Of a stretch of DNA of 64,000 bases, positions 15,065-40,258 are shown in pieces. Positions within the stretch are counted from its first letter, which is position 1, and every line of letters begins with the position of its first letter. The stretch is taken from IMG/VR virus record IMGVR_UViG_3300032284_002783, positions 1 through 64,000 of that record; one strand, 5' to 3'. The notes below the pieces were generated by a model. It was not told the origin of the DNA and made no database searches. It saw only the letters and a list, made by a program, of their open reading frames with translations. The position numbers and the translations under genes were made by a program. The stretch is from a virus.

Positions 15065-15625
15065 ATGTCTAATATTTATTATGTATATGCATATATAAGA
15101 ACTAAAAACTCAGCAACTGCTAACGCAGGTACACCATATTATATTGGTAAAGGTAAAAATCGTCGTGCATGGGAAAAGCATATAGTACCACGGCCAATAG
15201 ACAAAAATTATATAGTTATTGTGGAATCAAATTTAACTGAAGTTGGCGCACTTGCATTAGAGCGCAGATTAATAAAATGGTATGGCGGGAAAGATTTAGA
15301 AACAGGTATATTACTTAATAGGACAGATGGCGGCGATGGCGGATCTAATATTGTTTATGAAAGGACATTAGAGCATAAACAGAATCTGTCAAATGCATTG
15401 AAAGGCAAACCAAAATCTAATGAAATGAAAAAGAAATTGTCCATTACAAACACAGGACGAAAACTATCAGAATCTACGAGGAAGAAAATATCAGAGAATA
15501 ACAAAAACAGGGTATTATCTGACGAAGTATTAGCTAAGCTTAAAATGCCAAGATCTGATGATATAAAAAGAAAAATATCAGAGTCGGTTAAAAACTCTTA
15601 TCGTTTAAGAAGATTAAAACACTGA
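15065..15625 (+). mobile_element. Free-standing GIY-YIG homing endonuclease with NUMOD3-like repeats
   Basis: YYVYAY...[18 protein letters not shown], repeated (H/T)K.KISE modules; TAAATA and AGGAG upstream. Confidence 0.85.
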
Positions 15626-16529
15626 GATTACATGTTTTACATTAGTACCTTGAGGATTATTATGAGTCTTGCGAACTCGTTTCCCTCAACATCCACTGTC
15701 CCCTCATATTGTGAGACAGTCTACTAACAATGTCGCCTTTTTTAAGGTCAGGCAGTAGACCTTTCATGCAGTGCTACTCTACAACTTTTGCACCGTTAGC
15801 CTTGCGAGCTATTCGAGAGCGCTAACCCTCTACGACACATCTGTTACAGACCAACTCCACCTTGCGAGTTTTGTTGGGCTTGGTTCTCTTACGAGCCAAG
15901 CATTAGACATCTTTCACACTACACAGGGCCAGGCTTTGCGTTTTTGTAATCGAAAGTTGGACTTGAACCAACATACGACTGCTTGGAATGCAGTTGCCTA
16001 AACCATTCGGCTATATCGTTTGAACCTACTGTGATGTGCTGGCCCTGTTGCTGCATACCTTGTTAGATACACAATACAACACACCACCTGTATTTCGTCT
16101 TGCAGACTACTTTACCGTTTACCTGGACACTGTCTAGCCTTACGAGCTAGCCAATCCCCTCAAAACTGCCAACCGCCCTTGGCTGCAAAGCCTCGAACTT
16201 GTTTGACTATCCATTATCTATCAGCATTCTGTTGGTTTGCGTGCAAAGGTGATACTTGCGGTATCTTACTCCTCACCGATTGGCTCTGGAGCACATCCTT
16301 TCGGACCTTTACCCAACTGTCCTGCTTACCACCCCTTTCGGATGGCTCCTTTCGGAGCAGACTGGACTTGCATAGTGGACCCTATTGCTAGGTGCTGGTA
16401 GGTAGGCCTTCCAGCTTTGGGTCAGTTGCCTGACTTATTCCATTAATGGCGCTATGCCGCCAATGCTTATTTTACATTTTATAGAACAAAAACTTTGCAC
16501 ATTCGCTTGCGCTTGTGTGCGCCGTCTAT
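15616..16529 (-). ncRNA. GOLLD-like giant ornate RNA (about 900 nt)
   Basis: No credible ORF; about a dozen GNRA-capped hairpins on the minus strand; 3' end CAGUGGAUG..GAGGGAAA..AAUAAUCCUC..UGUAAUCUCAG resembles the GOLLD 3' domain as recalled; own sigma70 promoter. Confidence 0.75.
15948..16020 (-). tRNA. Degenerate tRNA-Gly(UCC)-like domain embedded in the GOLLD-like RNA
   Basis: D arm GCCGAAUGGUUUAGGC, anticodon arm ACUGC-AUUCCAA-GCAGU, T arm GUUGG-UUCAAGU-CCAAC; acceptor stem has two mismatches and no CCA. Confidence 0.6.
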
Positions 16530-16535
16530 GTAGCT

Positions 16536-16564
16536 AATATACAGAGCTTGACCAGCGCTGTCAA
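16536..16564 (-). promoter_or_regulatory. Sigma70-type promoter for the GOLLD-like RNA
   Basis: TTGACA-17 nt-TATATT. Confidence 0.8.
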
Positions 16565-16624
16565 CAGCATTTTTTGATTTTTTTTAATTATTGCTGTCTT
16601 TTTTAAAAAATAGTAAAAACAGCT

Positions 16625-17155
16625 ATGAAAACTAAGTGGGAAATAAGCCTTGCACAAGGTGAATGGTTTGAGGATAATGTCGCATTGCCCTGGTTGTATG
16701 CAAATTTTCCACAATGGTGGATTACGGATTGCAGGCTAGAGAAAAAGTCACAATTTGGTGGTCCAAAAATGCGTACTGCAAATCAAGTATTAACACTGCC
16801 CGATTTTAGATTGGATAATGCAGAAACCAATCAAACTATTTGGATTGATGCCAAATATAAGACTAAGTCTTATAAGCTAGATGATTATCCGGGCGATTAC
16901 TTTACTACAATAGACCCAAGAAGCTATCAAGAATACATGGATTTTATGAAAGTTTGGCCTAACTCAGATTTTTTGATTTTGTTTGGAAAACGAACTACTA
17001 AACTACTTTATATAATGAATCTAAAAACAGCCAAGCCTGTTATGCATTGGTATAATAATGAGCATGTTACAATGGGTAGAAATAGTGTTCCATGTTTTTC
17101 AGAGCGGTATCTAGACCCGGTTGGATCTTGGAATCCAACCCTAATGCCATACTAA
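16625..17155 (+). CDS. PD-(D/E)XK nuclease-like protein
   Basis: GEWFE...LPDF...WIDAKYK. Confidence 0.65.
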   Translation: MKTKWEISLAQGEWFEDNVALPWLYANFPQWWITDCRLEKKSQFGGPKMRTANQVLTLPDFRLDNAETNQTIWIDAKYKTKSYKLDDYPGDYFTTIDPRSYQEYMDFMKVWPNSDFLILFGKRTTKLLYIMNLKTAKPVMHWYNNEHVTMGRNSVPCFSERYLDPVGSWNPTLMPY

Positions 17156-37518: not shown

Positions 37519-39401
37519 AGGCTAATCCAGTCTTTACGATCATCAGCTCTATCAGCATTGAATATAAGATCCAATGCATCTGATAGATTTCCATCGTCTA
37601 CAATAGGTATTAATTTTGGACTAGCTAGACTGTGAATCCAGTCGGCTTCTTCTAAACTACCCAATCCCTTAGCTCGTGTTGGCTTTGGACAGTTCTTCCA
37701 ATCATCTGGATTATACTGTTGATAATCATCTGCATACCAATAAAACCTCTTCTTGCCTTTTTCTTGTATGATAAATGGTGTTTGAAACGCATAGAAAAAT
37801 GCTGGAAGCTTAGGGTCAAATAACTCAGGCCAATGCAAATAAAAGAAATTTATAAGCAAGGCCGTGATGTTAGCACCGTCTGGATCTTGGTCAGCTGCTA
37901 GATATACTTTACCATAGCGTAAATCTTCTCTAACTGCAGTCTGACCTAATCCTACGCCTATTGCAGCCATCAAGTCTGTAATTATTTGATTTTCAATGAT
38001 AATTTTTGCACTTTCACCCCGAACATTAAGAATCTTACCTCGTAATGGTAGTGCTCCATATATTTCGGGATCTCTCACAGCGCTAACCATTGTTTTAGCA
38101 CTATCACCTTCTGTAATAAGCAAAATACATTTAGTTCTGTCTTTACCGTTAGCATCCAGTAATTTTGGAACCTTTGCACGTAATAGCTTACGATTAGCCT
38201 TTGCTAAATCAGCATCCTCTTTTTTCTGCGTACGAGCCGCACAACGTTCATAAATTGCATTAACCCAAGATTTATGCTGTTTAATGATCGTTTTAAAGGT
38301 GTTTTCATTCTCTAGTGTTTGCTTAATCCATTTATCAACATCATCATTGATAAGTCGAGTTTTACTTTGACTATCAAAGTTAGGAGCATGCATAAAGGTC
38401 ACATTATAAATTAACAACCCTTCGCTTATGTCAGACCTATTTGGTGTTAGTCCGCGTCTCTTATTTTCACGTTCTAATGCCTTTAGCATACCACCAAAGA
38501 ATAATCTCTTGAATGTATCTATATGCTGACCTCCATTGAATGCAGGAATATCATTAACTGTACTGTGTATATATTCACCGTCTTTGGCAAAACCGGGTAC
38601 TAGATAGTAGTCACTTTTAAACTTGTCGCCGCTAATGTTTATAGTAGCAACGTCGCAATCACTAAAAAGTGTTTTTTCAATATTTTTACCAACAGTAACA
38701 CGTTCACCATTGAATAGAAACTTGATGCGTGGATGATTAGCGGCAACTTCAAACACTCTAGCCTTAATAAAATCTAATGGAATAAGTGCCTTCTTGAATA
38801 CAGTTGAACTTAGGGTGAACTTAACATAAGTGCCTGTTTTGCCATTACTGCTGCTGGTAATCTTAGGTTTACCAATTTCTAGCTCAGGTATAAGTTCTGA
38901 TCCTTCATGAAATGACTGTTGAAATCTCTTACCATCTCTCCTAATATCGACTGAGAACTCAGTAGAGCAGCTTACAACGACACTAGCTCCTATACCATTG
39001 GTACCTCTGACTTCTTCTCTGGTACCAAAGTTACGTCCCGCTCGCGCCTGTGTTAAGGCTAGTGTTGCCTTGTGCATTCGTTCATTTTCGTCGTAGTCAA
39101 TTGGAATACCGCGGCCGTCATCGCTAACTGAAAATGTTAATGTAGATGGATCATAAGTGATTTCTATTTTACTGCCGTGATTATGACCAACAACCTCGTC
39201 TAGCGCATTGTCGAACACTTCTCTAAAAGCACAATATGCAGCAGGTGTCCAAGAACTATCAACTGCTTCAAGCTTTGATCCGGTCCAGTTTACGATAGTT
39301 TGGTTGTGAACATTTCTACTGCCCAAATACATTTCTGTGCGATTTCGATGGTGCTGCCAGTCAGTTAGTTTAATGATTTCGTTTGATATTTTTTCAGCCA
39401 T
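37515..39401 (-). CDS. Type II DNA topoisomerase, GyrB/gp39+60-like subunit
   Basis: EVFDNALD, DDGRGIP, GTNGIG, EGDSA, PLRGKILN, DQDPDG, KGLG. Confidence 0.95.
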   Translation of the reverse strand: MAEKISNEIIKLTDWQHHRNRTEMYLGSRNVHNQTIVNWTGSKLEAVDSSWTPAAYCAFREVFDNALDEVVGHNHGSKIEITYDPSTLTFSVSDDGRGIPIDYDENERMHKATLALTQARAGRNFGTREEVRGTNGIGASVVVSCSTEFSVDIRRDGKRFQQSFHEGSELIPELEIGKPKITSSSNGKTGTYVKFTLSSTVFKKALIPLDFIKARVFEVAANHPRIKFLFNGERVTVGKNIEKTLFSDCDVATINISGDKFKSDYYLVPGFAKDGEYIHSTVNDIPAFNGGQHIDTFKRLFFGGMLKALERENKRRGLTPNRSDISEGLLIYNVTFMHAPNFDSQSKTRLINDDVDKWIKQTLENENTFKTIIKQHKSWVNAIYERCAARTQKKEDADLAKANRKLLRAKVPKLLDANGKDRTKCILLITEGDSAKTMVSAVRDPEIYGALPLRGKILNVRGESAKIIIENQIITDLMAAIGVGLGQTAVREDLRYGKVYLAADQDPDGANITALLINFFYLHWPELFDPKLPAFFYAFQTPFIIQEKGKKRFYWYADDYQQYNPDDWKNCPKPTRAKGLGSLEEADWIHSLASPKLIPIVDDGNLSDALDLIFNADRADDRKDWISL

Positions 39402-39709: not shown

Positions 39710-39877
39710 ATGGGCAAACCAAATTTTATAAAAGGTAAGACCGCATGGAACAAAGGAAAAAATAATCCTAATGCTGCCGAAAACGGTAAAAAAGGAGCAT
39801 TATTACAATCTATCAAGGTCATTGGTCGAAAACGAAAATATAATGATGACGGTACATGGTCATGGTATTACCCATAA
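39710..39877 (+). pseudogene. Remnant of homing endonuclease DNA-binding tail
   Basis: 55 aa KGKTAWNKGK..GRKRKY.DDGTWSW; no nuclease domain upstream. Confidence 0.5.
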
Positions 39878-39880
39878 TAA

Positions 39881-39908
39881 AATAAGGGAGCATTAATGCT
39901 CCCTTATT
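39881..39908. terminator. Intrinsic terminator after tmRNA
   Basis: AATAAGGGAGCA-TTAA-TGCTCCCTTATT. Confidence 0.8.
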
Positions 39909-40220
39909 TGATCTTTTCTGTTTCTAAGAAGACCGATCTCAATCTTAGGCTACTGCCTGAAGAAACGGAGCATTATCATTTGCTGCGTTTATTGTTTTTG
40001 ATCTATAAAGCGATCATCCTGCTATCTACTTCAATACCTTCAGCGCCAATCGATCCCAGTTATCCCCCATCAAAAGCACAGCCCGCTTTGCCTTTTCAGC
40101 TTATCCAAAAAACGACCTAGCATGTTTGCAACCATGTTATCCAGGCGTCTGTGCTTGTGGTGGAGGATTGGGGAGTTGAACCCCAGTCTTGATCACCTAT
40201 ATATTGCTATCAACAACAGC
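39909..40220 (-). ncRNA. ssrA: Two-piece (circularly permuted) tmRNA
   Basis: Acceptor piece with T arm and AUCCUCC-A-CCA (ends 40158); intervening segment; coding piece starts GGGGGAU (40068) giving G3:U70; tag (A)ANDNAPFLQAVA* at 39945-39986. Confidence 0.92.
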
Positions 40221-40225
40221 TAGTA

Positions 40226-40233
40226 TATTTATA
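40226..40233 (-). promoter_or_regulatory. T4-type late promoter for tmRNA
   Basis: Exact TATAAATA. Confidence 0.75.
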
Positions 40234-40258
40234 ACACAGATTTTTTAAAAATCAAGAC

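Follow-up and report, generated by a model that had tools for sequence, protein, structure and literature searches.

The window analysed here is a 64,000-nucleotide stretch of a viral contig of approximately 76.7 kb from IMG/VR (18% complete according to CheckV) and carries a GOLLD RNA on its minus strand. The first-pass annotation had placed a tRNA-like element inside a giant RNA, and that RNA was identified as GOLLD (Rfam RF02032) at 15619-16087 (-) with a score of 202.6 bits (E = 1e-55; Rfam gathering cut-off 150 bits), the match covering the full model, positions 1-416, in the cmscan output. In size and elaboration GOLLD ranks near the top of the RNAs known from bacteria and phages, and it forms RNA-only cages. 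A putative sigma-70-like promoter, called purely by consensus match at 11 of 12 positions (TTGACA, 17-nt spacer, TATATT; 16536-16564 (-)), lies upstream on the GOLLD strand, so the whole RNA is estimated at roughly 910 nt (15619-16528 (-)), with a 5' end placed from the promoter-like site and a 3' end taken as the end of the Rfam match. The interval between the promoter-like site and the Rfam match forms the variable 5' domain (16088-16528 (-)), which is outside the Rfam model and across which only short open reading frames of 54-70 aa were listed.

The phage setting of this GOLLD was confirmed by the source of the window, an IMG/VR viral contig with genes encoding a ribonucleotide reductase, a GyrB-like protein, an intein-bearing IscU and a permuted tmRNA, while a tail-sheath-like Pfam match was weak (23.8 bits, below the cut-off of 27). 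No tRNA besides the one embedded in GOLLD was found on the contig of approximately 76.6 kb, and the GOLLDs of relatives were located in large tRNA arrays. The nearest named GOLLD homologues were those of Sinorhizobium phage Phosso (469 kb) and the roseophages MD18, DSS3_MAL1 and DSS3P8, so the host of the window phage is likely alphaproteobacterial. Adjoining the 3' end of GOLLD on the opposite strand is an open reading frame of 186 aa (15065-15625 (+)) with NUMOD3 (23.5 bits), a homing-endonuclease DNA-binding motif, and a homing endonuclease at this site could drive the cassette exchange between relatives that is described below. An HNH endonuclease is also present at mycobacterial GOLLD loci (PMC6582537). 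The permuted tmRNA of the window was located at 39854-40251 (-) with the tag AANDNAPFLQAVA, the GOLLD gene of the roseophages (L003-L005) is immediately upstream of the phage tmRNA, and beta-type tmRNAs were present in two IMG/VR relatives (L147 and L151). GOLLD, tRNA arrays and tmRNA seem to travel together.

A 10-bp helix formed by positions 15923-15932 and 16039-16048 had been described in the first-pass annotation as displaying the tRNA-like module. Read from the minus strand, the 5' arm ACAGGGCCAG (16048-16039) and the 3' arm CUGGCCCUGU (15932-15923) were perfectly complementary over all ten pairs, and the pairing covaried across relatives. Pairs 4-10 were paired in 98-100% of 92 unique relatives with four pairs covarying, while pairs 1-3 were weaker; the outer 3 bp, which include the last three nucleotides of the 3' arm, overlap the Rfam pseudoknot helix of the 3' domain (5' strand 15916-15925 (-), partner 15774-15765; cmscan structure line). 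When the Rfam pseudoknot helix was scored against these outer 3 bp, the landmark search caught 16 sequences only. The first Rfam hairpin (16031-16087 (-), cmscan alignment) contains the 5' arm in its internal loop; its basal stem pairs GUGGUGUG (16087-16080) with CACAUCAC (16038-16031) and appears among relatives in the variants GGTGTG/CACATC, GGAGTG/CACTTC and GGCGTG/CACGTC. The closing of this basal stem falls between the two arms, which makes the 10-bp helix an arm of a pseudoknot rather than a simple stalk. It was also retained in 18 unique members without a recognisable tRNA, DSS3P8 included, and hence belongs to GOLLD itself, where it is a conserved pseudoknot arm closing a variable linker. 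The helix of the first-pass annotation was accordingly real but was not a stalk made for the tRNA.

Inside the linker, a tRNA-like module was located at 15948-16020 (-). ARAGORN called a tRNA-Gly(tcc) at 15946-16021 (-) and the Rfam tRNA model matched 15948-16020 with 51.2 bits (cut-off 29; E = 4.6e-8 when the whole window is searched), in agreement with the cloverleaf with a UCC anticodon and D, anticodon and T arms that had been drawn from the letters. The module comprises the acceptor 5' strand (16020-16014), D arm (16011-15996), anticodon arm (15994-15978), T arm (15972-15956), acceptor 3' strand (15955-15949) and a discriminator U (15948), all on the minus strand. Standard pairs made up three of four positions in the D stem and all five in both the anticodon and T stems, the T loop was UUCAAGU and the D loop contained GG. 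The anticodon (15985-15987 (-)) lies within the loop AUUCCAA (15989-15983), which places an A at position 32. The acceptor stem read A1-U72, A2.A71, C3-G70, G4-C69, A5-U68, U6.U67 and A7-U66, and was thus not an intact 7-bp stem, having mismatches at A2.A71 and U6.U67. The discriminator U is followed by ACA, so the CCA is absent. The two acceptor mismatches, the A at position 32 and the missing CCA, each read directly from the sequence, were all as the first-pass annotation had given them. Standing where a CCA tail would be is an A-rich linker end, ACAAAAACGCAAAGC (15933-15947 (-)), which was conserved across the clade and matched the Rfam consensus stretch AAAGCAAAAG. The bacterial GlyRS identity set consists of G1-C72, C2-G71, G3-C70, U73, C35 and C36; U73, C35 and C36 were present in the module, and its acceptor positions were A-U at 1:72, A.A at 2:71 and C-G at 3:70. 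A minimum-energy fold of 15923-16048 kept the outer helix and the T arm but not the full cloverleaf, an outcome that is uninformative for tRNAs.

In the cmscan alignment the module falls in an unstructured stretch and an insert after model position 62 of GOLLD. In Phosso, MD18, MAL1 and 70 IMG/VR members the insertion is at the same site, after the first Rfam hairpin and before the 3'-domain pseudoknot. Members of the clade were taken from GenBank phages and from IMG/VR, where a broad pattern scan gave mostly chance matches and was filtered by nhmmer; they numbered 113, of which 92 were unique. A homologous tRNA module was found in the same place in 74 of the 92 unique members (80%), and was lost or scrambled in the other 18, with remnants visible in DSS3P8, for example. 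Across an alignment of 68 modules, the outer helix and the D, anticodon and T stems were 98.3% paired compared to 79% in shuffles, and two-sided changes occurred at 17 of 24 pairs, a level matched by none of 500 shuffles; slid controls gave 25-47%. The fold is thus no product of chance, and selection acts on it. When all 74 unique modules were taken, pairing in the D, anticodon and T stems stood at approximately 98% and compensatory changes were numerous. Also kept were the T loop, G18G19, U33 in 57 of 61 seven-nucleotide anticodon loops and a purine at position 37 in 60 of 61. Acceptor pairs 4-7 were paired in 92-99% of the modules, while pairs 1:72, 2:71 and 3:70 were paired in only 53%, 23% and 61%, respectively. 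The arms have therefore not decayed uniformly among the homologues, and decay was confined to the top of the acceptor. As the D, anticodon and T stems were kept while the acceptor end decayed, this pattern favours a mimic over a decoding tRNA.

The extent of the acceptor loss was evident from a control set of 579 unique free class-I tRNAs taken from the same phage loci and passed through the same parser. A full 7/7 acceptor stem was found in 2 of the 74 embedded modules (3%) and 439 of the 579 free tRNAs (76%), and at least two acceptor mismatches in 54 (73%) and 80 (14%), respectively. CCA was encoded by five embedded modules (7%) as against 550 free tRNAs (95%), and anticodon loops of eight nucleotides numbered 11 in either set (15% of embedded modules, 2% of free tRNAs). 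Rfam tRNA scores of embedded modules ranged from below 53 up to 68 bits, and those of free tRNAs from 53 to 78 bits among the matches listed. Good-looking tRNAs did occur among the embedded modules, including L147 (68.1 bits) and L153, and CCA was present in L153, L166, L133 and L198. With these few near-perfect tRNAs the class is mixed, and the first-pass proposal of a mimic in place of a decoding tRNA was supported by the bulk of the 74 modules, in which elbow and anticodon arm are kept as the acceptor decays.

The linkers of two GOLLD relatives contained a circularly permuted tRNA (L149:7584-7731 (+) and L084:4736-4881 (+)), arranged in the order T arm, acceptor 3' strand with ACCA, closing loop, acceptor 5' strand, D arm and anticodon arm, and minimum-energy folding alone recovered all four arms in these. 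Two more weak tRNA matches (39160-39225 and 69591-69658) were located on the 116-kb contig (G001) of L207, the closest relative of the window. They aligned over tRNA model positions 4-67 and 3-68 only, without acceptor ends, and may be further acceptor-less look-alikes outside GOLLD.

The anticodon was not conserved among orthologues of the window module. L207 had the same scaffold, acceptor 3' strand and U73 with the anticodon UUU, and contigs from RNA libraries carried UCA, position 15985 being T rather than G on the plus strand. Since U73 is common to the UCC, UUU and UCA scaffolds, it is a feature of the scaffold and not a glycine signal. Clade-wide, the embedded modules displayed 13 different anticodons in addition to the 8-nt loops, with Lys, Arg, Asn and Leu predominant. 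Modules reading Leu (UAG) or Ser (UGA, GCU) had no long variable arm, while the free Leu and Ser tRNAs of those loci were 82-91 nt. Between close relatives the changes were concentrated in the loop or the module. Outside the loop L213 and L191 were identical at all but 3 of 498 positions, but the loops read AUUUUGA and AUUGAUAA; the 30 differences between L147 and L151 were every one within the module; and in pairs with a GOLLD core differing by 1.0%, module segments differed by 7-29%.

Many of the embedded anticodons were redundant with those of nearby tRNAs. Of 39 unique loci that contained five or more free tRNAs, 17 also encoded a canonical tRNA with the embedded anticodon, compared to 50 of 422 for the free tRNAs measured against one another (Fisher p = 3e-6), these loci being partial and the relatives not phylogenetically independent. 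The free partners had full acceptor stems and CCA, and in most pairs the embedded and partner 7-nt loops were identical or had one to two differences, with two pairs differing more. The modules with UCU were the exception, as no redundancy with a free tRNA occurred in any of their loci. Fifty-nine tRNA hits were obtained in the complete Phosso genome (L217-L222) and none was a free Arg-UCU, so the UCU module there could fill a decoding gap. The GenBank record of Phosso (PV764938; L002, 33.5 kb) annotates neither its GOLLD (186.6 bits) nor the embedded UCU module, and the tRNA hits of this phage include two CUA (amber-reading) tRNAs. An embedded CUA anticodon, likewise an amber reader, was observed in L130 (6467-6584 (+)) together with a free canonical CUA tRNA with CCA in the same locus; the look-alike of L130 copies even a suppressor tRNA.

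Contigs assembled from RNA libraries were located on 15708-16438, including 16087-16438 of the 5' domain. Those from four aquatic metatranscriptome runs of one study crossed the module unbroken (for example 15708-16102), so an unexcised form exists if these contigs derive from RNA, and excision alongside it is still compatible with them. None fell on 15450-15695 or 16475-16650, and as the contigs come from relatives in which the flanks may differ, they are silent on transcript ends and expression. In three of the runs contigs joined 16103 straight to 16394, omitting 290 nt of the 5' domain, which indicates that this study also sampled coexisting relatives whose 5' domain is far shorter.

We consider it somewhat better than an even chance, roughly 55%, that the module is a tethered, non-decoding tRNA look-alike in the linker of a phage GOLLD. 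It would be a tRNA-derived and tRNA-shaped module built into the variable linker J13/15, inside the part closed by the GOLLD pseudoknot helix, that keeps the D and T arms forming the elbow and a canonical anticodon arm, and that appears to have given up the features needed for aminoacylation, namely a fully paired acceptor stem of 7 bp and a CCA end. We infer that it most probably remains attached to GOLLD and takes no part in decoding. By homology with the solved GOLLD cages, in which the linker faces the cage interior, the module would face inward as well, with one copy per chain. The fast-changing part would be the anticodon loop or the whole cassette, which often appears to copy the loop of a nearby canonical tRNA. 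Such an element would offer a specific anticodon arm together with the elbow for a tRNA-recognising factor to bind, with a host tRNA-cleaving defence nuclease as the foremost candidate. A role as bait against tRNA-targeting factors would fit both the anticodon turnover and the loop copying. More tentatively, and in our estimation improbable, the GOLLD cage may act as a multivalent bait in which each chain tethers, inside the cage, the anticodon arm and elbow of whichever tRNA is under attack by defence nucleases of the local hosts or by other tRNA-recognising factors, the cassette being swapped or its loop rewritten as hosts change.

Several observations run against a tethered look-alike. In a minority of relatives the tRNA is good and its acceptor stem nearly full, and some of these encode CCA. 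The window module itself has just two acceptor mismatches and its CCA could be supplied by the host CCA-adding enzyme, and the UCU modules are non-redundant, that of Phosso being one that could fill a decoding gap. These same points lend themselves to an unlikely alternative, that of a genuine decoding tRNA-Gly(UCC) which GOLLD stores or carries and which is freed by RNase P and 3' processing, with CCA added by the host enzyme. The module was called by both ARAGORN and Rfam; its U33, A37, U73, C35 and C36 suit a Gly reader; and GenBank labels the MD18 and MAL1 modules, the D loop of which has an A after GG, as tRNA-Arg. Ideas of 'inhibited storage' and of exposed cargo have also been published for GOLLD (PMC12990946, PMC12286853). 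The acceptor of the window module, however, has the A2.A71 and U6.U67 mismatches and lacks G1-C72, C2-G71 and G3-C70 of the Gly set, and acceptor tops are unpaired clade-wide. The module does not encode CCA, although 95% of the canonical tRNAs in these phages do. As the same scaffold with U73 bears UUU and UCA in the nearest relatives, the identity of the module cannot track its anticodon, and the bridging contigs likewise argue against release.

Very unlikely, in our assessment, is a processing signal in which RNase P and/or RNase Z, attracted by the tRNA shape, would nick the linker and the 10-bp helix would then keep the domains together, as in a two-piece tmRNA. The conserved helix does bracket the linker and would hold both pieces, the permuted versions with ACCA in the closing loop (L149, L084) resemble permuted tmRNA genes, and a permuted tmRNA is encoded by the same phages. 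Such a signal would have no need of a canonical anticodon loop, yet U33 and the purine at position 37 persist, and resident tRNAs have their loops copied by the modules. In addition, the decaying part is the very acceptor helix that RNase P requires, the helix is kept in the 20% of members without a module, and contigs run through the module without a break. It is highly improbable that the module is a functionless relic of a tRNA gene which inserted into a disordered and tolerant linker and now drifts. In favour of a relic are the variability of the linker, its dispensability for cage structure (PMC12286853) and the 18 of 92 unique members that lost or scrambled the module. Against it stand the pairing and compensatory change of the three stems in 68-74 unique sequences, the conserved T loop and G18G19, a decay limited to the acceptor top and loop changes that far exceed flank divergence and converge on the loops of real tRNAs.

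A kissing loop was rejected because the longest complement of the anticodon loop within its own GOLLD averaged 5.48 nt, compared to 5.50 nt with loops swapped among members. A second pairing ("helix X"), between UUCGC, located 5' of and including acceptor positions 1-4, and GCGAA of the linker end, was possible in 52 of 59 relatives of the UUCGC/GCGAA class, 5 of 7 of the UUGCA/UGCAA class and 3 of 17 of the UUGCG/CGCAA class; it was absent from the window and from L207 and so does not explain the window element. Mutual information of the linker end with the remaining columns mostly reflected phylogeny and was uninformative.

tRNAs in GOLLD linkers have precedents. The linker has been described as variable, disordered and facing the cage interior, with the remark that "phage-encoded tRNAs are sometimes present" there (Kretsch et al. 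2025, PMC12286853), a tRNA-Phe is placed in J13/15 of a Mycolicibacterium GOLLD (reviewed in PMC12990946), and the pseudo-tRNA of the M. aubagnense GOLLD gave no separate signal on a northern blot (PMC6582537). The homo-oligomeric nanocage with an inward linker is known only for the env-38 and S. agalactiae GOLLDs (PMC12286853, PMC12990946). With linker tRNAs and pseudo-tRNAs already published, the window element belongs to a known GOLLD feature, a point that the first-pass annotation had not raised, sharing the family, the insertion site and the phage setting of the published cases and the degenerate tRNA fold of the mycobacterial pseudo-tRNA. It differs from published linker tRNAs in coming from a clade of aquatic, alphaproteobacterial-type phages in which 80% of unique members have the module. 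In the GOLLD papers that we consulted, no account was found of a systematic loss of the acceptor top and CCA, of anticodon turnover or of resident tRNA loops being copied. The linker tRNA is the sole part of GOLLD with a recognisable biochemical "meaning", and the acceptor loss, fast anticodon change and copying of resident tRNAs lead to predictions that can be tested in the culturable phages MD18, DSS3P8 and Phosso. If the multivalent-bait reading were true, it would give GOLLD a concrete role in countering host defence.

Defences that target tRNAs are well documented and phage-encoded tRNAs counter them, acting as free, chargeable molecules that replace the cleaved host tRNAs (PMC10264068, PMC11555353, PMC12409363). 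The GOLLD module resembles those tRNAs in being phage-borne, in lying within or near tRNA arrays in the relatives and in its fast-changing anticodon loop. Unlike them, it is covalently embedded and has neither CCA nor a sound acceptor stem, so that if it takes part in such a conflict at all it would do so as bait. The two-piece (permuted) tmRNA is similar in that a tRNA-shaped domain is wired into a larger structured RNA, a likeness that extends to the permuted modules of L149 and L084. The tmRNA, however, has an intact, alanine-charged acceptor end and no anticodon arm, which is the opposite of the GOLLD module. The TYMV TLS and mascRNA, a viral 3' tRNA-like structure and a tRNA-like processing signal, are located at or define the ends of their RNAs and are aminoacylated or cleaved. 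The GOLLD module is comparable to these as a tRNA mimic within a larger RNA that could be recognised by tRNA-recognising enzymes, whereas its position is internal.
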